Below, piece by piece: positions 1,187 to 63,657 of a stretch of DNA of 64,000 nucleotides; positions within the stretch are counted from its first letter, which is position 1, and each line of letters opens with the position of its first letter. The DNA is from Candidatus Nanoarchaeia archaeon. Its GTDB lineage: Archaea > Nanobdellota > Nanobdellia > SCGC-AAA011-G17 > JAFCDX01. Both the position numbers and the translations under genes were made by a program. The notes beneath the pieces were generated by a model. It was not told where the DNA came from. It made no database searches and saw nothing but the letters and a program-made list of their open reading frames with translations. The stretch is taken from positions 187,927-251,926 of the forward strand of contig JAQUOT010000001.1 in the NCBI GenBank assembly GCA_028716945.1, given 5' to 3'.

Positions 1187-3832
1187 TTATTTTTTAGAAG
1201 AAAGTTCAAGTCTAGCTTTTTGTTGGTTTCTTATTTTTTTGAAAATATAATCTAATTGGTTTTTCTTCCAACCTTTTTTAACCAAAGCATCTTTAATATC
1301 AATTTCAGATTTTTTATCTGCCAATTGTTTTTTAACATATGCTTCTAATTTTATTTCTTGTTCTTTATTTGAAATTGGAGATCCTCTTTTTATTATATAA
1401 TATTGCCAATATATGAAAACTCCAACAATTACAACTACTACAAATAATATTATTAAAATATACCATGGGAAACTTGATCCACAATCGGCCTTACACCATC
1501 CCTCTTCTAATGGATGACATACTCCATCTCCACATTGATATTCTGGTTCTTCAGTTATTTCTGTTTTAGTTGTAATAGAACATTGTTCTGAAGTAGAACT
1601 TAACTGATTTCCTGTGGTTGTATCATAAGTATAAACTGTTCTTGTTCCTATTCCATCTCCTTCGGGATCTATACAATCTCCTAATCTCTGTTCGTAAGAA
1701 CTTTGACTAGCCATAACAGAAGTTATTATACTACAAATTCCACCAATACAACATTTAACTGAATCTGATGAAGCTACAGAAATAAATTGTCCGGTTGTTC
1801 CAGTACATTGTTGATTTTCTAAACATATTTGTCCATCTAAATTATTACAAGTATAATCAGAATAATCTATTGTAAGTTCTTTACATTGCCCAGTACTAAG
1901 ATCTCTTGATTGACAAGACACACATTCTTCATCTTCTAAAGTACAAGTAGTAGTACAACTTGGATCACATGCATCTCCTTTCCCATCATTATCACAATCT
2001 GCTTGATCCTCATTATAAATGTATATGCAATTATCTTCATCATCACAAATTCCATCTTCATCATAATCATCTTCACATTCTAAGCAAGCAGCATTAGATA
2101 CACAAGCACTATCTGCACAATCTGTTAATCCATTACAATTATTATCAATATTATCAGTACAACTAGTTTCTGATTGAGCACAAGAAGAAGGGGTACATCC
2201 TCCATTATTACATCCATACCCATATGTTTGACAATCAACAACTAAAGTCCATACATTATTTTTACATTCTTGTACATTAGTTCCTAAACATCTTAACTGA
2301 TTTTCTTGACAAACAGCAGCTATACAACTTGTAGCAGATGTACAACAATTTAAACAATCACTTACTCCAGTTATAAGACTAGAACATGTTTGTCCAGATG
2401 TACAACAAACACCATTTTTTTGAGCACAAGTTTGTGAATTAGAAGAAGTAGTACCACATTGATTAGCAGTGCCTGCACCACCACAAGTTTCAGCAGCACT
2501 AACATTACAAGTTAATGTCCCTGTTTTAGATAGATTAGTTCCACAATTTGTTGAAACAATTTTATTTCCACAAAACGAACTTAGGTCTGGAGTAAATATA
2601 ATGGGAGTACATCCACTTCCTCCTACGCCTGCAGCACCACTAACAGTACAACTTTTAATTAATGAAAATTGATTAGTACATGCAGCATCTGTACAATATT
2701 GTTGCCCACCTATACCGGGATTAAAAACTTGACAAATAGACCAAGTTGAACAAGTTGATGTTGTACAAACTCCTTTAGATCCACTTCCTCCTGAAGAAGA
2801 AATATTTGAACTATTAATTTTTTTACAAAGGGTACCAATATCTCCTATATCTCCAACATTACATTTTGAATTTGGTACATATGTTGTACAATTATAAGTA
2901 GTATTTACCCACCTTGTTCCTCCACAATAATAAAAATTTCCAGAGGTACATAAATATTTTCCCCTCATACCAGCAGTACAATTTATTCCATTAAAGTTAA
3001 TTTGAGAAGTATCTCCACAAGTTTTAGCAGTAAATACTACTTTATTTGACAAAGCTCCATTCCATACCCAAACAACATATTTTTGTCCAGGTTCTAAAAC
3101 ATAACTTGGAGATAAGGGTTGTACATTTCCAGCTACATCTCCAGAACCGGTTAATTTTATATTAAACTCATTAAGTGTAAAGGTTTCGGTTGCTTTTGAT
3201 GTATCTTTTACTTCTATAGCATAATAGGTTGATGTAGAAGGATCTGCATTACTTATTTCTCCTTTAAAAACATCAATACTATAAGTTCCACTACTAGGAA
3301 CACTTCCACCACTAAAAGTTATATTTACTTTTGATTTAGTTCCTTCACAAGAAGTTGTAATAGTTGAAGATAAAGTTACGGGGGTTATTATACTTCCTGC
3401 TCCACCCGAAGTTGTGGGTGTAACACATTTTCCACTGCTACATATTTTACCATAATCAGAACAATCTATTTTTCCAATATAAAATGAATTTACAGTATTT
3501 CCACAATACCATTCTCCTAAAAGAGTACCTGTAGTATCTTGTCCAATATCTTTAAGACAATAATCAGAACCTACTACTTGGGTTGTAGAGCTAGAACCAA
3601 TCGCAGAAGTAGTTAATGTAATTTTACTAATTTTACCTTGGATATTATAATTCCAATAACTAGAACTAGAACCATCTGATTTTATACATGAATAAGTAGA
3701 AGCTTCTAAAGTTCTTGTATTATCTGAATTTGTTCCAAATAAATTAGTTAAAAAATTATTTATTGAAAAAGCAAATACAATTGGAGTTACTAAGATTAAT
3801 AATAAAGAAAGTACAATCAAGCTCTTTTTCAT
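1187..3832 (-). CDS. Giant Cys-rich surface protein (signal peptide, many Cys-rich and beta-rich repeats, C-terminal TM helix, short basic cytoplasmic tail)
   Basis: ORF track 1187..3877. I moved the start to Met-16 (ATG 3830-3832) because everything upstream is the conserved promoter shared with the copy at 1146. C-terminus has the TM helix FPWYILIILFVVVVIVGVFIYW plus a lysine-rich tail. Confidence 0.6.
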   Translation of the reverse strand: MKKSLIVLSLLLILVTPIVFAFSINNFLTNLFGTNSDNTRTLEASTYSCIKSDGSSSSYWNYNIQGKISKITLTTSAIGSSSTTQVVGSDYCLKDIGQDTTGTLLGEWYCGNTVNSFYIGKIDCSDYGKICSSGKCVTPTTSGGAGSIITPVTLSSTITTSCEGTKSKVNITFSGGSVPSSGTYSIDVFKGEISNADPSTSTYYAIEVKDTSKATETFTLNEFNIKLTGSGDVAGNVQPLSPSYVLEPGQKYVVWVWNGALSNKVVFTAKTCGDTSQINFNGINCTAGMRGKYLCTSGNFYYCGGTRWVNTTYNCTTYVPNSKCNVGDIGDIGTLCKKINSSNISSSGGSGSKGVCTTSTCSTWSICQVFNPGIGGQQYCTDAACTNQFSLIKSCTVSGAAGVGGSGCTPIIFTPDLSSFCGNKIVSTNCGTNLSKTGTLTCNVSAAETCGGAGTANQCGTTSSNSQTCAQKNGVCCTSGQTCSSLITGVSDCLNCCTSATSCIAAVCQENQLRCLGTNVQECKNNVWTLVVDCQTYGYGCNNGGCTPSSCAQSETSCTDNIDNNCNGLTDCADSACVSNAACLECEDDYDEDGICDDEDNCIYIYNEDQADCDNDGKGDACDPSCTTTCTLEDEECVSCQSRDLSTGQCKELTIDYSDYTCNNLDGQICLENQQCTGTTGQFISVASSDSVKCCIGGICSIITSVMASQSSYEQRLGDCIDPEGDGIGTRTVYTYDTTTGNQLSSTSEQCSITTKTEITEEPEYQCGDGVCHPLEEGWCKADCGSSFPWYILIILFVVVVIVGVFIYWQYYIIKRGSPISNKEQEIKLEAYVKKQLADKKSEIDIKDALVKKGWKKNQLDYIFKKIRNQQKARLELSSKK

Positions 3833-3873: not shown

Positions 3874-5895
3874 TCAAAATAAAGGTTTTATTCTGGTTTC
3901 TTTCAAAGCTTCCTTAATTTGTTCCTCTTTCCACCCTTTTATTCTTAAAGAACTTATAATTTGTTCTTTTGGAATACCTTGATTTATTTTAACTTGAATA
4001 TAATTTGATAATCTTGCTAAACTTAATTCTTTTTCAATATCGGATTGTGGCCAACCTGCTCTTTCTAATTCCTCTTTTATATTCTTCAAAGGAACTTTTG
4101 CATTTAAAGATTTTTGAATATATTCTTTCATTTTTTCAACATTAACAGGTCTTACTTTTATTGTAGGTTCTTGTTTTATTTCTTTTACAAAAGTTTGAGG
4201 AGCAACTTCTTTTGGTTGAACTATCGGACTTGATTCTTCAACAACTGCTCTTTTTCTTTGTACATAAGTATAAATTATAATTACTAAAATCATAATGAAA
4301 ACTATTCCAGAAATTAAACTTACTCCAATAAGCACCTTATTTGATTTATTTTCAAGATTAGTGTTAGTACCTAAATTAACATTTGTAGTTGTTCCTGCTA
4401 AAACAGTAGAAGTACAAGAAATAGAACAGCAAATTCCTGATCCCGAATGTAATAAAGTAGAACTACTACAAGTTTGATTACTTCCACAAACATAACCATT
4501 TTCTAAAGAGCAAGAACAATCTGAATCTCCTCCAACGCAAGATATAGAACAACCATCATTTATTCCACAAGTAGAACCAGTACAAGATTCATTAATTGCA
4601 GGTCTTCCTGTTAAAGTTCCACAATTATTTTCATCAATACAAGTTCTTGTTCTTACATTATTAACACAAGAAGTCCAATTTGTACAATTCCAAGTTTCAG
4701 AACAGGAAGAAGTAGAATTTGTAATATTAATTAAGAATAAATTACCAACAACATACAATCCTAAACTATCATTAGCACTAAATCTTATTAAATTGGTTCC
4801 AGTCCAGTTTGCTTTTGGAACAAATTCTGCTTCATCATTAGAATTTATAAAAATAGAAATAGAATTATTTCCGGTGAAATTATAAATTAATTTTTGTCCA
4901 TCTGGTTCTGAGAAATAATCCTCTAATTCTAAACTATCATTGGTATTTTTTCTCCAAGACATATTATCAAAATTATCTTTTAATATAGGAGGAGAATTTA
5001 ACATATCAATACTGCTTGAATTTACATAAGTTCCTTTAATCGTATCGTTAGCACTAATAGTACATGTCCATTCATCTATATGACTTTCAGTTATCTGTAC
5101 AGAAATATTACAAGATTTTCCATTTACCCAAGAATCTCCAGAACAAGATACATCTCCAGATTTAAATGGACTAGCAAAATTAGTTTCATTCCACAAAATG
5201 TATTTAACATTAACAGTACTACTATCCGTATCTTTAACAATAGAAGAACAATTTACATAATCTTTTACTCTAAACTTATTTGAACCAGTTAAATTAGTAA
5301 AAGAAACATCTGTTATTGTAGGAGGATTAGTTGTTACAGGAGCAGAAACTGTAAAACTTTTTGTATCTGAAATTAAAACATCTGCACTGTAATTTAAAAT
5401 GAATTCTAAAGTATAAGTTCCAGCACTTAAGGCAGATAATCCAGAAAAAGCAGATATAGGAGTACTTACAGTAACTTCAGAAAGCGTTGAAAATGCTCTT
5501 CCAGGTTGTTCAGGATTTTCCCAAGCCCAATCAGGACTATCATGACTTCCATCTTTAAAAATTTGACCATCAATACAATTTTTTGGATTTGCATTTGAGT
5601 TAGTTAAAAAATTTTCTAAAGTTAGAGTACTACGTTGTATAACTTGGTCTCCAGAATCTTTTATACCTATATAAACATTTGAAGACCCATTACAAGGAAT
5701 AACATCGCCTGCTAAAAATTTTATTGAAATATCTCCAGTTAATGATTGCCCTGCAGTTATAGTATCTAAATCAATATTATCTTTAACAACGTTTCCAGTA
5801 ATAGATGGCTTCATTAACATAAAAACTAAAAATGAGAATACAAATATTGCAAATATAAAAACGCTCAATTCTCTATCTTTTTTAATATGTACCAC
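3874..5895 (-). CDS. Large surface protein: signal anchor, Ig/PKD-like beta domains, Cys-rich stalk, TM helix, cytoplasmic tail with repeated K-G-W-x-x-Q motif
   Basis: 673-aa ORF. N-terminal hydrophobic segment; C-terminal Cys-rich region (CSETWNCTNWTSC...), then TM helix VLIGVSLISGIVFIMILVIIIY and a tail carrying ...RAGWPQSDIEKEL... and ...RIKGWKEEQIKEAL... Confidence 0.55.
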   Translation of the reverse strand: MVHIKKDRELSVFIFAIFVFSFLVFMLMKPSITGNVVKDNIDLDTITAGQSLTGDISIKFLAGDVIPCNGSSNVYIGIKDSGDQVIQRSTLTLENFLTNSNANPKNCIDGQIFKDGSHDSPDWAWENPEQPGRAFSTLSEVTVSTPISAFSGLSALSAGTYTLEFILNYSADVLISDTKSFTVSAPVTTNPPTITDVSFTNLTGSNKFRVKDYVNCSSIVKDTDSSTVNVKYILWNETNFASPFKSGDVSCSGDSWVNGKSCNISVQITESHIDEWTCTISANDTIKGTYVNSSSIDMLNSPPILKDNFDNMSWRKNTNDSLELEDYFSEPDGQKLIYNFTGNNSISIFINSNDEAEFVPKANWTGTNLIRFSANDSLGLYVVGNLFLINITNSTSSCSETWNCTNWTSCVNNVRTRTCIDENNCGTLTGRPAINESCTGSTCGINDGCSISCVGGDSDCSCSLENGYVCGSNQTCSSSTLLHSGSGICCSISCTSTVLAGTTTNVNLGTNTNLENKSNKVLIGVSLISGIVFIMILVIIIYTYVQRKRAVVEESSPIVQPKEVAPQTFVKEIKQEPTIKVRPVNVEKMKEYIQKSLNAKVPLKNIKEELERAGWPQSDIEKELSLARLSNYIQVKINQGIPKEQIISSLRIKGWKEEQIKEALKETRIKPLF

Positions 5896-5934: not shown

Positions 5935-6486
5935 TTATTCTTTATGCTCTTTTATGATTTCTGCTTGAAATTTGTATATTTTTACAAATTTGTCCTTCCA
6001 AAAGTTCTCTGACAACCCTGCTTTATAACATAAGGAATCCAAAAACTCAGTCAAATTCATTTTATGTTCAATAGGAACTTGGGGCAATAACAATCCTTTT
6101 CTTCCCAAATATTCTATAATTAATCCATCTTTTCCAAGTTTTATTTTCTTCAAATATTCTTCTGGAGTTTTTACTTTGATTAATTTAGGAATTGTTAATA
6201 TTGAAATTTCTATGGAAAACTTTTCTCCTTGTTTTAAAGATTCAAATCTATTATCAGAGAATGCAGCAAATCTCGCGGCTTCTGCAATGCTTTTTCCAAG
6301 AATATTATAAGGTTCAATAAAACCAATACACCCTTTTAATTTTCTTTTGGAATATAAAGTAACAAAAACACCTTTTTTTTCTTTGAATTTATTTAATTCT
6401 TTTTCATCAATTTCCTTACCAGAAAAATAAGTTTCTATGGATTTTCTAGCTAACTCTAATAATTTCTTAGCTTGCAATTTATTCAT
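5935..6486 (-). CDS. AMMECR1-domain protein
   Basis: 183 aa with the conserved ...KLKGCIGFIEP... core typical of the AMMECR1 family. Confidence 0.6.
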   Translation of the reverse strand: MNKLQAKKLLELARKSIETYFSGKEIDEKELNKFKEKKGVFVTLYSKRKLKGCIGFIEPYNILGKSIAEAARFAAFSDNRFESLKQGEKFSIEISILTIPKLIKVKTPEEYLKKIKLGKDGLIIEYLGRKGLLLPQVPIEHKMNLTEFLDSLCYKAGLSENFWKDKFVKIYKFQAEIIKEHKE

Positions 6487-17144: not shown

Positions 17145-17188
17145 TTAGAAATATTTAAATATATTGTATTTAATTTTAAAGGTAGAAT

Positions 17189-17338
17189 GGAGCGGTAGCT
17201 CAGAAAGGTTTTGAAGTTTAAGACCTTGAGCAACCTGGGAGAGCATAGAAATATCTCAAACCACGCTGAAGCCGTGGATGAAAGGTTATACGTCTAGTAT
17301 ACCTTGCCAAATCGGGGGTTCAAATCCCCCTCGCTCCA
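17189..17338 (+). tRNA. tRNA-Phe (anticodon GAA) with three insertions: D-loop about 27 nt, 16 nt at position 26/27, about 31 nt in the variable region
   Basis: Manual fold: acceptor GGAGCGG/TCGCTCC (G-U at pair 7), D-stem GCTC/GAGC, anticodon arm CCACG-CTGAAGC-CGTGG, T-arm GGGGG-TTCAAAT-CCCCC, discriminator A. The variable-region insert forms a hairpin TATAC-gtcta-GTATA. Confidence 0.5.
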
Positions 17339-18026
17339 TTTTCTTTATATTTTTAATATTAGAACTTCTTATTAATTTAATAAAAGAGGAGGCATTATTA
17401 TAACCGCTTATTTGTATTTTATATTTTTCATACCTTTTATTAGTTCTTTTATCTATATAATTTTCATGTCCTACATAATGATCTATCTTTTGAATTTTAA
17501 TCCAATCAGATATTTTGTATATTAAATTTTTATCTTTTAGACCAAGATTAATAACTGGATAAAATTTATATTTTCCGTGATTCTTTTTTAAACACAAAGA
17601 ACCATCTGTATCAAAAATTCCTTTAATGAATGCTTTAGCATAAATTTTATTATCCCATATCCATCGAGGAACCTTATTTCTATAATTTATTTTTTTATAA
17701 CCTATAATATTAAGAAAAGATAATATCCCTTTAGATCTCTTTGTTAAGATTAAAGTATTAATCTTTTTCTTTTGATATAAATTCATCTTTACATTGAATA
17801 AAAACAAAACTTTATCTTTAATATAGTTTGAATAATTCCTCTCATCTTTGAGATTACTAAAAATAGAAAAAATATAATCATTGCTTCCTAAATTATAATA
17901 AACATGGCCATCTCCAGACAAAATACCTAAAAATTCTGACAAGTCTCTAGAAGAGGATTTAGGAAAAATAATTTTATTCTTAATATCTTGGTGACTTAGT
18001 TGAATATCTGATAAATCAAATTTCAT
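17286..18026 (-). CDS. LAGLIDADG-family homing-endonuclease-like protein, copy 1
   Basis: Motifs LGILSGDGHV and KGIFDTDGSL (two LAGLIDADG-type helices, so a single-chain enzyme). Start set at MKFDLSDI (ATG 18024-18026) because upstream sequence is conserved non-coding in copy 2. The last about 17 codons are antisense to the tRNA-Phe 3' half. Confidence 0.55.
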   Translation of the reverse strand: MKFDLSDIQLSHQDIKNKIIFPKSSSRDLSEFLGILSGDGHVYYNLGSNDYIFSIFSNLKDERNYSNYIKDKVLFLFNVKMNLYQKKKINTLILTKRSKGILSFLNIIGYKKINYRNKVPRWIWDNKIYAKAFIKGIFDTDGSLCLKKNHGKYKFYPVINLGLKDKNLIYKISDWIKIQKIDHYVGHENYIDKRTNKRYEKYKIQISGYNNASSFIKLIRSSNIKNIKKMERGGFEPPIWQGILDV

Positions 18027-27754: not shown

Positions 27755-28144
27755 ATGTCTAAACAAAAGGGGAGTAGAGCAGAAAGAGAGCTTCTTCATA
27801 TGTTATTTGATGAATCTTTCCATGTGGTTCGTTCTGCAGGTTCGGGATCTATAGGATTACCAAATCCAGATTTAATAGCTGGAAGAGATGGAAGAATTCT
27901 AGCTATAGAATGTAAATCTCTCAAAAATACAAGTAAATACTTTAAAGAGCAAGAAATAAAAGAATTAAAACAATTTTCTAAGAAATTTGGTGCAGAAGCT
28001 TGGTTAGGAATAAGATTTGATAATATTGGTTGGTTTTTTATACATCCTGATAAATTAAACAAAACTAAATCTAATTATTATGCAATTTCATTAGAAGAAT
28101 TAAAAGAGAAAGGTTTAAATTTCAAGGAGCTAATCAAAAAGTAA
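27755..28144 (+). CDS. hjc: Holliday junction resolvase Hjc
   Basis: ...KGSRAERELLHML...VVRSAGSG...PDLIAGRDGRILAIECKS... (Hjc catalytic E/D/K pattern). Confidence 0.7.
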   Translation: MSKQKGSRAERELLHMLFDESFHVVRSAGSGSIGLPNPDLIAGRDGRILAIECKSLKNTSKYFKEQEIKELKQFSKKFGAEAWLGIRFDNIGWFFIHPDKLNKTKSNYYAISLEELKEKGLNFKELIKK

Positions 28145-55792: not shown

Positions 55793-55844
55793 AATTAATT
55801 CTAAATATTAACCTTTATAAATCTTAACTAAGTTTAAACATTAT

Positions 55845-55939
55845 AGCCCCTTAGTGTAGTGGCCAAATTGATTAAAAATCAAGGCTAGGCATACGAGACT
55901 CTGGATCTTGTGACGGAAGTTCGAATCTTCCAGGGGCTA
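55845..55939 (+). tRNA. tRNA-Gln (anticodon CUG) with about 22-nt D-arm intron
   Basis: Acceptor AGCCCCT/AGGGGCT (A1-U72 as in archaeal tRNA-Gln), anticodon arm CGAGA-CTCTGGA-TCTTG, T-arm GGAAG-TTCGAAT-CTTCC, discriminator A. D-arm insert contains hairpin TTGAT-taaaa-ATCAA. Confidence 0.55.
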
Positions 55940-55940
55940 C

Positions 55941-56013
55941 GCTCCCATAGTCTAGCGGTTAAGGATATGAGCTTCTCGAGCTCGTGACCTGGGTTCAAAT
56001 CCCAGTGGGAGCA
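55941..56013 (+). tRNA. tRNA-Glu (anticodon CUC), intronless, 1 nt downstream of tRNA-Gln
   Basis: Acceptor GCTCCCA/TGGGAGC, anticodon arm TGAGC-TTCTCGA-GCTCG, T-arm CTGGG-TTCAAAT-CCCAG. Confidence 0.65.
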
Positions 56014-56861: not shown

Positions 56862-57827
56862 ATGTTAAGGTTAGAAATTCCTAAAGAAGATTTGGTAAAT
56901 CTATATGAAAAAGAGAAACTTACAACTTTTCAAATAGCGGAAAAACTTAATTGTTGTCAAGCAACAATCTGGAAAAGATTAAAAGAATATGATATAAAAA
57001 CAAGAATTTCTGGAATTGAGAGGGTTAAAATAACAAAAGAAAAACTTTTTGATTTATATATAAATAAAAAATATTCTACTTGGAAAATTGAAAAAATAAC
57101 TGAAATCCCAAGGGGAACGATACATAGAAAACTTAAAGAGTTTGGAATTCAATCAAGAGATATTTCCGACTCCCATATTATCTATGAAAAAAGAGATTTT
57201 TCTGGGGATCCTTTAGAAAAAGCTTACCTTATAGGATTTAGAATTGGGGATCTGGGAGTTAGAAAAAGAGGTGCTAAAAGTAAATTAATCTGTGTTGCTA
57301 GTGGAAGCACCATAGAAGAACAGATAATTCTAATAAAAAATTTATTTAAAAATTATGGAAAAGTTTGGATTAAAAAATCAAAAAATAATAAAATAAATGT
57401 ATATGTATACCTTAATTTATCTTTTGGTTTTTTATTAGATAAAAAGATTCCAAAAGAATTAGAAAAAAACAAAAAACTATTTTTTGCATTCCTGGGAGGA
57501 TTTACAGATGCGGAAGGGAGTATGAAATTAAATAAAAATATGGCTTATTATTCTTTAGGAAATTATGATAGTAAATTATTATTTAAGATATATAACTATC
57601 TAAATAAATATGGAATAAAATGTAATAAACCTCATTCAGATAATAGAATTGGAACTTTCAATAGTCAGGGATATAAATACAACTCAAATTATTGGACATT
57701 AAAAATTTGTAGAAAAGAAGAATTATACAAATTACTTAAAGAATTAAAACCTCACATTAAACATAAAAATAAAATAAAAGATTTAAATATAGTAGAAAAT
57801 AACCTAATCGAAAGGATTAAAAGTTAA
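56862..57827 (+). CDS. LAGLIDADG-family endonuclease-like protein with two N-terminal HTH repeats, copy 3
   Basis: Two HTH-like repeats (...TTFQIAEKLNCCQATIWKRLKEY... and ...YSTWKIEKITEIPRGTIHRKLKEFG...), then LAGLIDADG-type motifs LIGFRIGDLGV and LGGFTDAEGS. Confidence 0.5.
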   Translation: MLRLEIPKEDLVNLYEKEKLTTFQIAEKLNCCQATIWKRLKEYDIKTRISGIERVKITKEKLFDLYINKKYSTWKIEKITEIPRGTIHRKLKEFGIQSRDISDSHIIYEKRDFSGDPLEKAYLIGFRIGDLGVRKRGAKSKLICVASGSTIEEQIILIKNLFKNYGKVWIKKSKNNKINVYVYLNLSFGFLLDKKIPKELEKNKKLFFAFLGGFTDAEGSMKLNKNMAYYSLGNYDSKLLFKIYNYLNKYGIKCNKPHSDNRIGTFNSQGYKYNSNYWTLKICRKEELYKLLKELKPHIKHKNKIKDLNIVENNLIERIKS

Positions 57828-57844
57828 AAAGATAATATATTAAC

Positions 57845-59371
57845 ATGAAAAAGTTTTACGTAACAACCCCAATATATTATGTAAATGATATAGCTAGTAT
57901 AGGCCATGCTTACACTACTTTTGCAGCAGATACCTTAGCTAGATGGCATAGATTAAAAGGAGAAGATGTTTTTTTCTTAACAGGTTTAGATGAAAACTCT
58001 CAAAAAACAGTCAAAGCAGCAGAAACTGCAGGTGTTAAAGATTTAAAAGAATATACTAATCAAATGGCTTTGAAATGGACTTCTACTTGGAAAAATCTAA
58101 ACATTTCTAATAATGGATTTATAAGAACTACTGAAGCTAAACATAAAAAATTAGTAAAAGAATTCTTTATGAAAGTGTATGAAAAAGGGGATATTTACAA
58201 AGGGAAATATGAAGGATTATATTGCGAAGGATGTGAATGTTTTTATACTGAATCAGACCTAGTAGAAGGAAAATGTCCTTTTCACAAAACAGAACCAAAG
58301 TTTATATCTGAAGAAAATTATTTTTTTAAATTAACAAAATATGCAGATAAAATATTAACTTACATAGAAAAAAATCCTGATTTTATTTTACCTAATTCCA
58401 GAAAAAATGAAGTTGTAGAATTTATTAAGATGGGATTAAAAGATATTAGTATTTCTAGACCAAATGTTGATTGGGGAATTCCCTTACCAATAGACAAAAA
58501 TCATCATTTCTGGGTATGGTTTGATGCTTTACCAAATTATATCACTGGAGCTCCAAAATATTGGCCTGCAAATTGTCATTTATTAGCAAAAGATATTTTA
58601 AGATTCCATTGCGTTATTTGGCCTGCTATGTTAATGAGTGCAGGTTATGACTTACCAAAACAATTATTTGTACATGGATTTTTAACTATTAATGGACAAA
58701 AGATGTCAAAATCTTTAGGCAATGCTATAGACCCAAATGTTTTAGCTCAAAAATATTCTGTAGATTCATTAAGATATTATTTAATGCGTAGCATTCCATT
58801 TGGAGAAGATGGAGATTTTTCAGAAAAAGCATTAATAACAAGAACAAATACAGAATTAGCAGATTCTCTGGGTAATTTATTAAATAGAGTTGTTTCTATG
58901 TGTGAAAAATATTATGATTCTAAAATACCAAAAGCAAAAGAAGACAAAGAATTAAGTTCAAAATTAGATTTTAAAAAAATTGATTCCTTAATATTAAATT
59001 ATAAGTTACATGAGGCTTTAGCAGAAATATTTTACTTTGTAGATCAATGTAATAAATATGTAAATGAAAAAGAACCTTGGAATTTAGCTAAAAATCAGAA
59101 AGAAGATGAACTTGAAAAGGTTTTATTTAATTTGGCAGAATCATTAAGAATAATTTCTCAATTAATTTATTCTTTTATGCCAGAAACAGCAGAAAAAATA
59201 AATGAACAGCTTGGATTTAAATTAAGAGATAGTTTTGACTTGAAATGGGGTAATGCAAAATCAAAAGGTATAAAAAAAGGAGAAACTTTGTTTAAAAAAA
59301 TTGGCCTAACTGATGGACTTAAAAAATCTTCAAATGATGGTTTAAAAGGGGGACCTAGAAATGGACTTTAA
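57845..59371 (+). CDS. metG: Methionyl-tRNA synthetase, catalytic core only
   Basis: ...PIYYVNDIASIGHAYTT... (HIGH), C-x2-C...C-x2-H knuckle (CEGCEC...CPFH), KMSKSLGN. Confidence 0.85.
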   Translation: MKKFYVTTPIYYVNDIASIGHAYTTFAADTLARWHRLKGEDVFFLTGLDENSQKTVKAAETAGVKDLKEYTNQMALKWTSTWKNLNISNNGFIRTTEAKHKKLVKEFFMKVYEKGDIYKGKYEGLYCEGCECFYTESDLVEGKCPFHKTEPKFISEENYFFKLTKYADKILTYIEKNPDFILPNSRKNEVVEFIKMGLKDISISRPNVDWGIPLPIDKNHHFWVWFDALPNYITGAPKYWPANCHLLAKDILRFHCVIWPAMLMSAGYDLPKQLFVHGFLTINGQKMSKSLGNAIDPNVLAQKYSVDSLRYYLMRSIPFGEDGDFSEKALITRTNTELADSLGNLLNRVVSMCEKYYDSKIPKAKEDKELSSKLDFKKIDSLILNYKLHEALAEIFYFVDQCNKYVNEKEPWNLAKNQKEDELEKVLFNLAESLRIISQLIYSFMPETAEKINEQLGFKLRDSFDLKWGNAKSKGIKKGETLFKKIGLTDGLKKSSNDGLKGGPRNGL

Positions 59372-60786: not shown

Positions 60787-60882
60787 TGAGCCCGCGGAGA
60801 TTTGAACTCCGGGCCCCCACCAATGATTTGGTTTAAATCCAATTTATCAGAGTGGTGCGCTACCAGGCTGCGCCACGGGCTC
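60787..60882 (-). tRNA. tRNA-Ile (anticodon GAU) with about 22-nt intron at or near the canonical 37/38 position
   Basis: Reverse complement: acceptor GAGCCCG/CGGGCTC, D-arm GCGC-AGCCTGGTA-GCGC, anticodon stem CCACT/GGTGG, loop CTGATAA followed by insert attggatttaaaccaaatcatt, T-arm CGGAG-TTCAAAT-CTCCG, discriminator A. Confidence 0.55.
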
Positions 60883-60961
60883 ATGAGATATATTGTTAAA
60901 AGATAATTTATAAGGTTTTTGAATTGATAAAGTTTAAATAATATTAAATTTTAACTATCCT

Positions 60962-61673: not shown

Positions 61674-62687
61674 ATGGAAAAAAAAGAAATACTTGCACAT
61701 TTTAGTTATGGAAGTGCTATAAGAAATGCTATAGAAAAAATAACTAATGCTAATCGTGGAGTTTTAGTTGTTTTTGTTAAAGATAAGGGTATTAAAAAAA
61801 TAAGTGTTGGTGGTTTTAAAATAAATGAAGAGTTTTCTGAAGAAAGACTTGCTGAATTAGCAAAATTAGATGGAGCAATATTGGTAGATAATAAACTACA
61901 AAAAATAATTAGTGCTAATGTCTTATTAAATCCGAGTATAAAAATTCCTAGTACAGAAACAGGTACAAGACATCAAGCAGCAGAAAGAACTGCAAGACAA
62001 TTAGATACAATGGTTCTTGCTATTTCTGCAAAAACAGGAACTGCAATGGTATATCATGGAAATGGTAAATTAAAATTAAATAATTTAGGTAAAATATTCA
62101 CAAAGACTGGAGAAGCACTAAGAATTATTGAAAAGCATAGAGAATTATTTAAAGTTTTAATAAAAAAGTTTGATACTTTTGAATTATTAGAAATGGTTAC
62201 ATTAGAAGACCTTGCTTCTATATTTCAAAGAGAAAAAATAATGGATTCTGTTGCAGATATAATCTCTGTTTATTTAAGCGAATTAGGTGATGAAGGAGAA
62301 TTAACAGAATTACAATTAAAAGAAATTATAACTTATGTTCATGCAGAATTAGCTGCAATTATGGCAGATTATCATGATTATTTTAATTTTGATAAGATAA
62401 TTGAAGAATTAAAAGACTTAAAACGTGATGAAATTGTAGTTAAAGAAAACATTTTTAAAATATTCTTAGATAATAGAAAAAAAGAAGATACATTAATACC
62501 GAAAGGTTATAGAATATTAAAGAACATCCCTATTTTAACAGAAGAAAATATAAAGTTATTAATGGAAACTTTCCCAAGTTTAAAAGAATTAATTTCTGCT
62601 CAAGAAGAAGAATTAGCTGCTATCAAATCTATAGGAAATAAAAAGGCTAAAGCTATAAGAGAATATCTATTAAAAGCACAGATTTAA
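61674..62687 (+). CDS. DisA-like diadenylate cyclase (DAC domain, helical linker, C-terminal HhH)
   Basis: ...LDGAILVD..., ...TGTRHQAAERTARQ..., ...AISAKTG... (DAC motifs DGA / GTRH..A / S..TG). C-terminal ...EEELAAIKSIGNKKAKAIREYL is a helix-hairpin-helix. Confidence 0.55.
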   Translation: MEKKEILAHFSYGSAIRNAIEKITNANRGVLVVFVKDKGIKKISVGGFKINEEFSEERLAELAKLDGAILVDNKLQKIISANVLLNPSIKIPSTETGTRHQAAERTARQLDTMVLAISAKTGTAMVYHGNGKLKLNNLGKIFTKTGEALRIIEKHRELFKVLIKKFDTFELLEMVTLEDLASIFQREKIMDSVADIISVYLSELGDEGELTELQLKEIITYVHAELAAIMADYHDYFNFDKIIEELKDLKRDEIVVKENIFKIFLDNRKKEDTLIPKGYRILKNIPILTEENIKLLMETFPSLKELISAQEEELAAIKSIGNKKAKAIREYLLKAQI

Positions 62688-63382
62688 GAATTATTTCTAA
62701 AATAATAATATTTTTTCCAATGTTTGGGGTTATTAGGAGAGATAATTTTCATCCATTTATTTAACATAAATTCTCCTCTAATTGAAACCTTATATAAATC
62801 TAACCAATTATGATTTTTATGTTTATAAGAATAGATTGTAGAACGAATTCCTAATTTGTTTATTAAATTATTTAATTGTAATCCTAAAGGTTTAGAAGTG
62901 GTGCTTATCTCTAAACGAGGATATAATTTTTTATATTTTGGTTGTAAATATAAAGTTCCATCCGTATCAAAGATTCCTTTAACCACATTAATAGTATACT
63001 CCTTTCTATTTAAGAAACAAGAAGGTATACAAATATCAAATTTTTTACCAAGAGGTAATTTAAGAATTTTATTTTTAAATTCGATTAATGAATCATCCCA
63101 AATTTGAAATCCAAATACTTTTGTAGAAGGCATTTCTTTTGGTTTTATTTTTAAATCATAAACTTTTTTATATAAATCTATAATTTTATTATTATAATGT
63201 TCTTTATCATCAAACATATGCCCCCTTAAAGAATAAAGTCCTTTAGACGTATTTCCGTTTTTGTAAAAATTCATACTTCCATCTCCAATATGCAATCCTG
63301 TTTCTTCTGCTAATTCTATTATTGGTTTTTCTGGAAGTATAAGTTTAGTGCTTTGCTTAATGTCAGATAAATCAAACTTCAT
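62684..63382 (-). CDS. LAGLIDADG-family homing-endonuclease-like protein, copy 2
   Basis: MKFDLSDI... (first 8 aa identical to copy 1), motifs LHIGDGSM and KGIFDTDGTL. Confidence 0.55.
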   Translation of the reverse strand: MKFDLSDIKQSTKLILPEKPIIELAEETGLHIGDGSMNFYKNGNTSKGLYSLRGHMFDDKEHYNNKIIDLYKKVYDLKIKPKEMPSTKVFGFQIWDDSLIEFKNKILKLPLGKKFDICIPSCFLNRKEYTINVVKGIFDTDGTLYLQPKYKKLYPRLEISTTSKPLGLQLNNLINKLGIRSTIYSYKHKNHNWLDLYKVSIRGEFMLNKWMKIISPNNPKHWKKYYYFRNNS

Positions 63383-63488: not shown

Positions 63489-63618
63489 CGCCTTAGGGAG
63501 GACTCGAACCTCCGACCACCTGATTAACAGTCTCACCTTTCCATATTGGAAAACAGGTGCTCTACCCTTCAGATCTTCTGAACCTAAAAGGCCAGATGGT
63601 TTGCTGAGCTACTAAGGC
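63489..63618 (-). tRNA. tRNA-Asn (anticodon GUU) with two introns (about 36 nt in the D-loop; 22 nt inside the anticodon stem, position 30/31)
   Basis: Reverse complement: acceptor GCCTTAG/CTAAGGC, D-stem GCTC/GAGC. After removing ttttccaatatggaaaggtgag the anticodon arm is CCTGA-CTGTTAA-TCAGG. T-arm GGAGG-TTCGAGT-CCTCC, discriminator G. Confidence 0.5.
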
Positions 63619-63657
63619 ATGATTTAAAAGACTTAGAATTAATTTAAAAAGGTTTCC

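Follow-up and report, generated by a model that had tools for sequence, protein, structure and literature searches.

In archaea, a "maximum of three" (PMC4033280) or "up to three" (PMC8450103) introns per tRNA gene have been described. Non-canonical and multiple bulge-helix-bulge (BHB) introns are well documented in Thermoproteales, as in Pyrobaculum and Thermofilum (Sugahara 2008 and Fujishima 2010, cited in PMC4033280 and PMC8450103). In the DPANN superphylum, ARMAN-2/Micrarchaeum carries an epsilon2 EndA and other lineages an L3-loop alpha4 EndA (PMC3239211, PMC5829648), the latter being found in several DPANN lineages and associated with increased tRNA gene disruption (Kaneta 2018, PMC5829648). 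A relaxed D-loop intron of the HBh' class is known from the pre-tRNA-Glu(UUC) of Methanopyrus kandleri, where its removal was experimentally slower and enzyme-dependent (PMC5829648), and ectopic or multiple tRNA introns are found in the nucleus of Cyanidioschyzon merolae and in cryptomonad nucleomorphs (PMC3728597, PMC4090602). Here we examine a 64,000-nucleotide stretch of contig JAQUOT010000001.1 from a Candidatus Nanoarchaeia archaeon, which in its full length we refer to as the window. We find that its interrupted tRNA-Phe, tRNA-Asn, tRNA-Gln and tRNA-Ile genes are very probably functional archaeal tRNA genes with three, two, one and one protein-spliced BHB introns, respectively, a reading that is based on the geometry of the motifs, the exact restoration of canonical tRNAs upon excision, and conservation and covariation among orthologues. 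An initial annotation of the window had described inserts in the first three of these genes and regarded multi-intron tRNAs as a trait of a few archaeal lineages, in keeping with their documentation in Thermoproteales and with reports from Thaumarchaeota, ARMAN and other DPANN archaea.

We located tRNA frames across the window by searching for a perfect 7-bp acceptor stem together with a T-arm, which returned exactly five G+C-rich frames, corresponding to Phe(GAA), Gln(CUG), Glu(CUC), Ile(GAU) and Asn(GUU). The tRNA-Glu gene has no insert. On the unspliced window ARAGORN reported only tRNA-Glu (55941-56013) and tRNA-Ile (60787-60882, one intron). The Rfam tRNA model RF00005 matched positions 17189-17338 (+), the tRNA-Phe gene, with 31.6 bits (gathering threshold 29) and inserts of 36 and 63 nt, gave a partial, sub-threshold match of 26.9 bits at 55853-55931 in tRNA-Gln, and had no match over tRNA-Asn (63489-63618).

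Introns were delimited with one fixed rule, in which a 4-bp central helix (H) is accompanied on each strand by a 3-nt bulge 3' of H, with the cut placed after the second bulge base. The rule is consistent with the placement of the first two anticodon bases within the central helix (Yoshihisa 2014, PMC4090602), and the same rule recovers the canonical 37/38 introns in related tRNA-Phe genes (H5 = CTGA at 32-35, bulge AG|N). In the window the rule defines seven introns in four tRNA genes. The second and third Phe introns have strict hBHBh' motifs, those of Gln and Ile, the first of Phe and the second of Asn are of the HBh' class, in which the outer helix is absent or very short, and the first Asn intron is of the relaxed hBH class. 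The central helix is fully paired (4/4) in all of them except the third Phe intron (3/4). We assessed significance with 20,000 shuffles per intron, in which the exons were kept fixed and the score was the sum of H and the inner helix at the required junction; the resulting p-values are given below with each intron.

The tRNA-Phe(GAA) gene (17189..17338, + strand) spans 150 nt and consists of four exons, at 17189-17203, 17234-17244, 17260-17280 and 17312-17338; its CCA end is not encoded. Intron 1 (17204..17233, 30 nt, p = 5e-5) interrupts the D-loop at 15/16, with H formed by GCTC/GAGC, bulges AG|A and AA|C, and the inner helix AAGGT/ACCTT (inner score 10). Its excision yields the D-loop AGCCTGGGA, the same as in all related tRNA-Phe genes. 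An alternative, 28-nt register of this intron is also BHB-compatible; it would leave an 11-nt D-loop that is seen in no orthologue. Intron 2 (17245..17259, 15 nt, p = 5e-5) lies at 25/26, the junction of the D-stem and the anticodon stem, and comprises the outer helix TGG/CCA (3 bp), H GAGA/TCTC, bulges GC|A and AA|A, the inner helix TA/TA (2 bp) and a GAAA loop. Intron 3 (17281..17311, 31 nt, p = 0.0023) is in the variable loop at 46/47 and has the outer helix CCG/CGG, H TGGA/GCCA, bulges TG|A and AA|T, and an inner helix of AAGG..CCTT together with TATAC/GTATA. Introns 1 and 3 are alike (AAAGGTT...ACCTTG.C.AA), sharing the first seven nucleotides AAAGGTT, the inner-helix sequence ACCTTG and a terminal AA.

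In the tRNA-Gln(CUG) gene (55845..55939, + strand) a single intron of 22 nt (55867..55888, p < 5e-5) is found in the D-loop after position 20b, with H GGCC/GGCT, bulges AA|A and AG|G, and the inner helix TTGAT/ATCAA (inner score 6). The spliced D-loop, AGTGGCCAA, matches that of the tRNA-Gln of relatives, AGTGGTCAA. The tRNA-Ile(GAU) gene (60787..60882, - strand), which both ARAGORN and Rfam detect, carries one intron of 22 nt (60822..60843, p = 0.0036) with H TGAT/ATCA; both programs place it at the canonical site, whereas the BHB geometry puts it at 38/39, one base off, with H using positions 33-36 instead of 32-35 and the spliced loop reading CTGATAA.

The tRNA-Asn(GUU) gene (63489..63618, - strand), which was found by the frame search, contains two introns. 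Intron 2 (63532..63553, 22 nt, p < 5e-5) is within the anticodon stem at 30/31 and displays H CACC/GGTG, bulges TG|T and AG|A, the inner helix TTTTCC/GGAAAG (6 bp) and an outer helix of 2 bp. Intron 1 (63567..63601, 35 nt, p = 0.057) is in the D-loop at 17/18, with H TCAG/CTGA and a 3' bulge AG|G closed by 2 bp (inner 1, outer 2). Its borders are the least certain of all and would follow mainly from the comparison with an orthologue, since the spliced D-loop AGCAGGTA is comparable to AGTAGGTT in the tRNA-Asn of locus L035. We also asked whether the 35-nt insert could be split into a pair of introns, adjacent or nested (candidates 24-40, 36-57 and 37-56), and rejected this, because no usable D-loop was left.

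Removal of the seven introns in silico leaves 74 nt for Phe, 73 nt for Gln, 73 nt for Asn and 74 nt for Ile, which ARAGORN calls as Phe(gaa), Gln(ctg), Asn(gtt) and Ile(gat); the stems and loops of all four are canonical. The spliced products retain U8, A14, the G15-C48 pair, G18G19 and the TTCRAnY T-loop, and the isotype marks are in place, namely G20 and the discriminator A73 in Phe, the discriminator G73 in Asn and the A1-U72 pair in Gln. The initial annotation had thus located the inserts of the Phe, Asn and Gln genes where the BHB-defined introns lie, had assigned the anticodons that the spliced products carry, and had correctly anticipated clean cloverleaves once the inserts are removed. 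The two hairpins it had singled out, TATAC-gtcta-GTATA in the third Phe intron and TTGAT-taaaa-ATCAA in the Gln intron, are present and constitute BHB inner helices, and a BHB search, which it had proposed, gives registers at all junctions that exceed the shuffles in every case except the Asn D-loop intron.

Several observations weigh against the reading of these inserts as spliced BHB introns. The shuffle p-value of Asn intron 1 is the sole weak one of the seven; its 3' site is in a proper helix-bulge-helix setting, but a 6-nt loop surrounds the 5' site. An outer helix is missing, or is limited to 2 bp, in Phe intron 1, the Gln intron and Asn intron 2, which makes them relaxed HBh' motifs, and such motifs are poor substrates of the classical alpha4 or alpha'2 enzymes. 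The 28-nt register of Phe intron 1 is ruled out solely by the comparison with orthologues. Minimum-free-energy folds of the full precursors display the BHB of Phe intron 1 and not all of the others, and are not decisive. Lastly, neither EndA nor RtcB is among the open reading frames (ORFs) scanned in the 64-kb window through Pfam and NCBIfam annotation.

If the interrupted genes were instead pseudogenes or relics that retain their inserts, with intact copies elsewhere in the genome supplying the tRNAs, this would fit with ARAGORN missing the Phe, Asn and Gln genes and with Rfam scores that are marginal or absent, and only 64 kb of the genome were examined. We nevertheless consider this highly improbable, given that stems, tertiary positions and identity elements are all intact after excision and that every insert is in BHB register at the exact junction. 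Small DPANN genomes, moreover, usually hold one gene per isoacceptor. Putative promoters are also present. A TATA-box-like TTTAAATA is located at 17154..17161 (+ strand), approximately 31 nt upstream of tRNA-Phe, and similar boxes, lying within AAACCTTT(W)TAAAT, occur at 55814-55821 for Gln, 63643-63650 (-) for Asn and 60906-60913 (-) for Ile. Across the four genes the candidate boxes are approximately 28-31 nt upstream, and T-rich trailers follow the genes. Finally, introns at the same positions, with compensatory changes, are found in other lineages.

These orthologous tRNA-Phe genes were found through homologues of an ORF adjacent to the window tRNA-Phe, and further ones through a DNA pattern for intron 3, and their intron content was parsed with the same BHB rule. 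The genes range from zero to four introns at about nine positions. Six have none (L005, L007, L014, L015, L016, L018), two have one at 37/38 (L009, L010), and two have two, at 27/28 and 37/38 (L011) or at 37/38 and 53/54 (L012). Three introns are found in L013 (18/19, 37/38, 53/54) and in the window (15/16, 25/26, 46/47), and apparently four in L090/L091 (3/4, 18/19, 27/28 and 46/47, of 27, 26, 26 and 30 nt). The last of these genes, at 6009-6191 (+) of L091 and corresponding to L090 (JGI Ga0209541_10015278 / Ga0209542_10067431), is missed by ARAGORN and is syntenic with the window, as it has a ValRS gene that is 56% identical and divergent from the tRNA. Its central helices are 4/4 in three introns and 3/4 in the one at 46/47, the inner helices are 5-8 bp, and the first BHB (3/4) draws on bases of the 5' leader. 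The introns at 18/19 and 46/47 of L091 are of the same AAAGG...AA type as introns 1 and 3 of the window tRNA-Phe.

The 46/47 intron of tRNA-Phe is found in the window, in L006 and in L091, with central helices TGGA/GCCA, GTAG/CTAC and ATGG/CCAG, which amount to double compensatory changes; this covariation was read by hand, as a MAFFT alignment of the three introns misplaced exon bases, and it carries no formal statistic because the sequences are few. Similarly, the tRNA-Asn of L035 has an apparent intron at the same 30/31 site, with H CGTG/CACG vs CACC/GGTG in the window. This gene was also parsed by hand, because the strict solver failed on it, the outer helix of its 37/38 intron being possible only once the 30/31 intron has been removed. 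The orthologues thus speak for the inserts being introns and also for the precise positions of their borders.

Two further loci were noted in the course of these comparisons. The L006 tRNA-Phe gene (4689-4840, -) has clear introns at 30/31 and 46/47, and in addition a 14-nt insert beside the anticodon loop, a near-duplicate of GGCTGAA with no BHB in any register, which could represent an intron in decay or a fault of the assembly. In L017, from an uncultured archaeon, two adjacent tRNA frames with large non-canonical inserts are found at 2235-2530 (-), beside another ORF of the LAGLIDADG endonuclease type, one being a tRNA-Ile(GAU) with approximately 50 extra nucleotides in the D-loop and the second a frame of 135 nt with no isotype assigned. 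Genes of tRNAs with large non-canonical inserts seem to be common in this radiation.

The recurrence of the window in other data bears on both the identity of the host and the authenticity of the inserts. The window has a G+C content of 27% (26-30%) and encodes archaeal housekeeping genes, including ValRS, aRF1, CysRS, a ribosomal-protein/SecY operon, Hjc, primase and PCNA-region neighbours. Since its ValRS is identical to NCBI proteins labelled "Candidatus Nanoarchaeia archaeon", and since aRF1, Hjc, primase and the ribosomal proteins are archaeal, the host is, as judged from these genes, a DPANN archaeon of the class Nanoarchaeia. The sequence recurs in the metagenome-assembled genome (MAG) GCA_028712455.1 and in the Logan assembly of SRR22315509. 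In the former it spans two contigs, JAQTPZ010000005.1 and JAQTPZ010000002.1, and because it bridges both, the window derives from an assembly of this population that has greater contiguity. That the source is a MAG, and that the window covers two contigs of another assembly, could suggest that the inserts are assembly or binning artefacts arising from chimeric metagenome joins. We regard this as barely conceivable, because a 50-nt pattern of intron 3 and the T-arm matches an NCBI contig exactly (L001), an identical copy of the Phe-adjacent ORF is found in Logan, and a Logan contig of SRR22315509 covers the stretch from Gln to Asn. Homologous interrupted genes are present in unrelated samples (L006, L012, L013, L090/L091), and BHB registers would not be expected from artefacts.

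If the inserts are BHB introns, their removal would follow the established archaeal tRNA splicing pathway, in which EndA cleaves and RtcB ligates (PMC4090602, PMC5829648); we infer that transcription, cleavage and ligation take place, and that EndA accepts relaxed motifs outside the anticodon loop. Each gene would be transcribed from its own TATA-type promoter, and each intron would carry a 4-nt stretch that pairs with the exon bases immediately preceding the 5' splice site. In tRNA-Phe the predicted pairings are intronic GAGC with GCTC of the D-stem, TCTC with G20-A23, and GCCA with positions 41-44, so that the exon bases involved would often be those that later form the D- or anticodon stem. 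The result would be a 4-bp helix with 3-nt bulges on opposite strands, stabilised by the intron hairpin, which EndA would cut after the second base of each bulge before RtcB joins the exons. As several exon segments would be sequestered by pairing with introns, the cloverleaf would form only after excision. Because most motifs are relaxed HBh' and lie outside the anticodon loop, the predicted enzyme must have a broad specificity.

The initial annotation had also pointed to endonuclease genes alongside the tRNA genes. Such genes are present, but they comprise three LAGLIDADG ORFs resembling DNA homing endonucleases plus the resolvase Hjc (27755-28144), not EndA; as these act on DNA and not on pre-tRNA, we rejected them as the splicing enzyme, and they have no bearing on splicing. 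The first LAGLIDADG ORF (17286..18026, - strand, 246 aa) is I-DmoI-like and convergent with tRNA-Phe, and its PF14528 match of 20.2 bits is just under the 22.5-bit cut-off. The second (56862..57827, + strand, 321 aa) encodes a helix-turn-helix domain together with LAGLIDADG_3 (PF14528) and is located 850 nt downstream of tRNA-Glu. The third (62684..63382, - strand, 232 aa) is a LAGLIDADG_3 ORF (PF14528) that starts 106 nt downstream of tRNA-Asn and shares its strand. The gene list of the NCBI contig has nothing annotated over the stretch of the LAGLIDADG ORF and tRNA-Phe.

The Phe-adjacent ORF overlaps its tRNA gene. Its last 17 codons are antisense to the 3' part of tRNA-Phe (..KMERGGFEPPIW..), and its stop codon (17286-17288, -) lies in intron 3. 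In relatives without intron 3 the LAGLIDADG ORF is longer, and in L005 it extends through the entire tRNA. Like all of its homologues (40-52% identical), the ORF has the ending ..KMGxxGFEP.., a sequence that results from translating the tRNA acceptor stem and T-arm in antisense, and a convergent tRNA-Phe partner is found at five independent loci. On this basis the C-terminal tail seems to be read-through and not a working portion of the protein. In the family alignment two LAGLIDADG motifs with conserved acidic residues are found, with invariant GDG (38-40) and DTDG (139-142), and the family profile matches I-DmoI, PI-PfuI and 2dch.

We extended the comparison to 80 related loci from GTDB genomes, 54 archaeal and 26 from bacteria of the Candidate Phyla Radiation (CPR). 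A tRNA gene lies no more than 300 nt past the ORF's 3' end at 35 of the 54 archaeal and 23 of the 26 CPR loci (58/80), against background expectations of 0.015 and 0.066, respectively, and the ORF stop is usually 10-40 nt inside the tRNA gene. In 47 of 60 cases, compared to approximately 10 expected, the isotype and orientation of the tRNA are shared with the nearest protein relative, and the sub-families go with isotypes, including Phe, His, Ser, Arg, Gln, Tyr, Leu and others. On these counts, the association of LAGLIDADG and tRNA genes is real and general across DPANN and CPR. A literature search gave no description of such a tRNA-linked LAGLIDADG family, an absence that is no proof of novelty.

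With three LAGLIDADG ORFs neighbouring the tRNA genes for Phe, Asn and Gln/Glu within the window, a family bound to tRNA gene ends at most of the loci surveyed, and Phe introns 1 and 3 that look like copies of each other, the introns could be functionally tied to the adjacent endonuclease genes, either shielding the tRNA by breaking the recognition site or as passengers of gene conversion. The distribution of introns makes this quite unlikely. The tRNA-Phe genes linked to an endonuclease are often intron-less, as in the six loci listed above, whereas the four-intron tRNA-Phe of L091, with the same synteny, has no LAGLIDADG ORF at the locus and a Fic gene instead. The introns also lie at least 27 nt from the ORF/tRNA junction, beyond a typical LAGLIDADG site, which is 14-22 bp. 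As intron number does not follow the presence of the ORF, we draw no mechanistic tie between the two. Beyond the intron reading itself, we tentatively propose, as an idea whose chances we rate somewhat below even, that the I-DmoI-like genes form an undescribed class of homing elements, free-standing and directed at the ends of particular tRNA genes in DPANN and CPR, with each sub-family tied to one isotype and the ORF ending inside the tRNA, and that in this Nanoarchaeia clade tRNA-Phe is an intron hot-spot (zero to four introns, about nine positions, one four-intron gene) with copies that appear to move within the gene. If true, this would offer a tractable system for studying the spread of BHB introns and of tRNA-linked endonuclease genes.

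Two other features of the window were recorded. The tRNA-Glu(CUC) gene (55941..56013, + strand) is intron-less, scores 63 bits with Rfam and begins 1 nt after tRNA-Gln; the two are probably co-transcribed. A weak Rfam match to SNORD47, which is C/D-box-like, lies at 59091-59159 (-), antisense inside a MetRS-like gene (28 bits, E = 0.35), and is probably due to chance.

The multi-intron tRNA phenomenon is already known, and the novelty here is modest, lying in the lineage and in the intron positions. Standard annotation overlooks such genes, with ARAGORN reporting none and Rfam one of the three Phe, Asn and Gln genes. Because interrupted genes are missed in this way, DPANN MAGs can seem to lack essential tRNAs, which affects inferences on completeness and decoding. 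The window extends intron proliferation of the Thermoproteales style to a mesophilic, low-G+C Nanoarchaeia lineage, and one of its genes cleanly exemplifies introns at 15/16, 25/26 and 46/47. The graded series of zero to four introns in an orthologous tRNA is a handle on the gain, copying and loss of BHB introns and on EndA specificity, while the LAGLIDADG family linked to tRNA genes opens a lead of its own on the mobile elements of ultra-small genomes.

When compared with known systems, the LAGLIDADG ORFs resemble I-DmoI (PDB 1b24, 2vs7) and PI-PfuI (1dq3) in having two LAGLIDADG motifs with conserved acidic residues and in their profile match. I-DmoI, however, is encoded inside an rRNA intron, whereas the window ORFs are free-standing, abut or overlap the ends of tRNA genes and are known from sequence alone. 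The window ORFs lie among tRNA genes, and so does T4 SegB, a free-standing phage endonuclease in a tRNA cluster.

As for the introns, the genes of C. merolae and of nucleomorphs share two or three short non-canonical introns per tRNA and an A+T-rich compact genome, but their hosts are eukaryotic, whereas the window is archaeal, as seen in aRF1, Hjc, the archaeal ribosomal proteins and tRNA-Ile(GAU). The M. kandleri pre-tRNA-Glu likewise has a relaxed HBh' D-loop intron in which a strand of the D-stem pairs with the intron; it comes from a euryarchaeon, however, and combines one non-canonical with one canonical intron, while the window tRNA-Phe has three non-canonical introns and no canonical one. 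The disrupted tRNA genes of DPANN archaea are closest in taxonomy, belonging to the same superphylum, with non-canonical and multiple introns and full tRNA sets that standard tools miss, although the window genes, the combination of 15/16, 25/26 and 46/47 in one tRNA-Phe, and the lineage are not described there (PMC3239211, PMC5829648). With Thermoproteales the window shares short BHB or relaxed-BHB introns, many positions other than 37/38 and up to three introns per gene, and the likeness of Phe introns 1 and 3 parallels the "intron transposition" described in that group, in which similar introns occur at different sites (PMC4033280). Thermoproteales are hyperthermophilic crenarchaea, unlike the low-G+C DPANN host of the window, and the window enzyme probably does not belong to the (alpha-beta)2 class with the crenarchaeal loop. 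Overall, the three-intron tRNA-Phe of the window equals the published maximum, and the four-intron tRNA-Phe of L091 appears to be above it, if its reading is confirmed.

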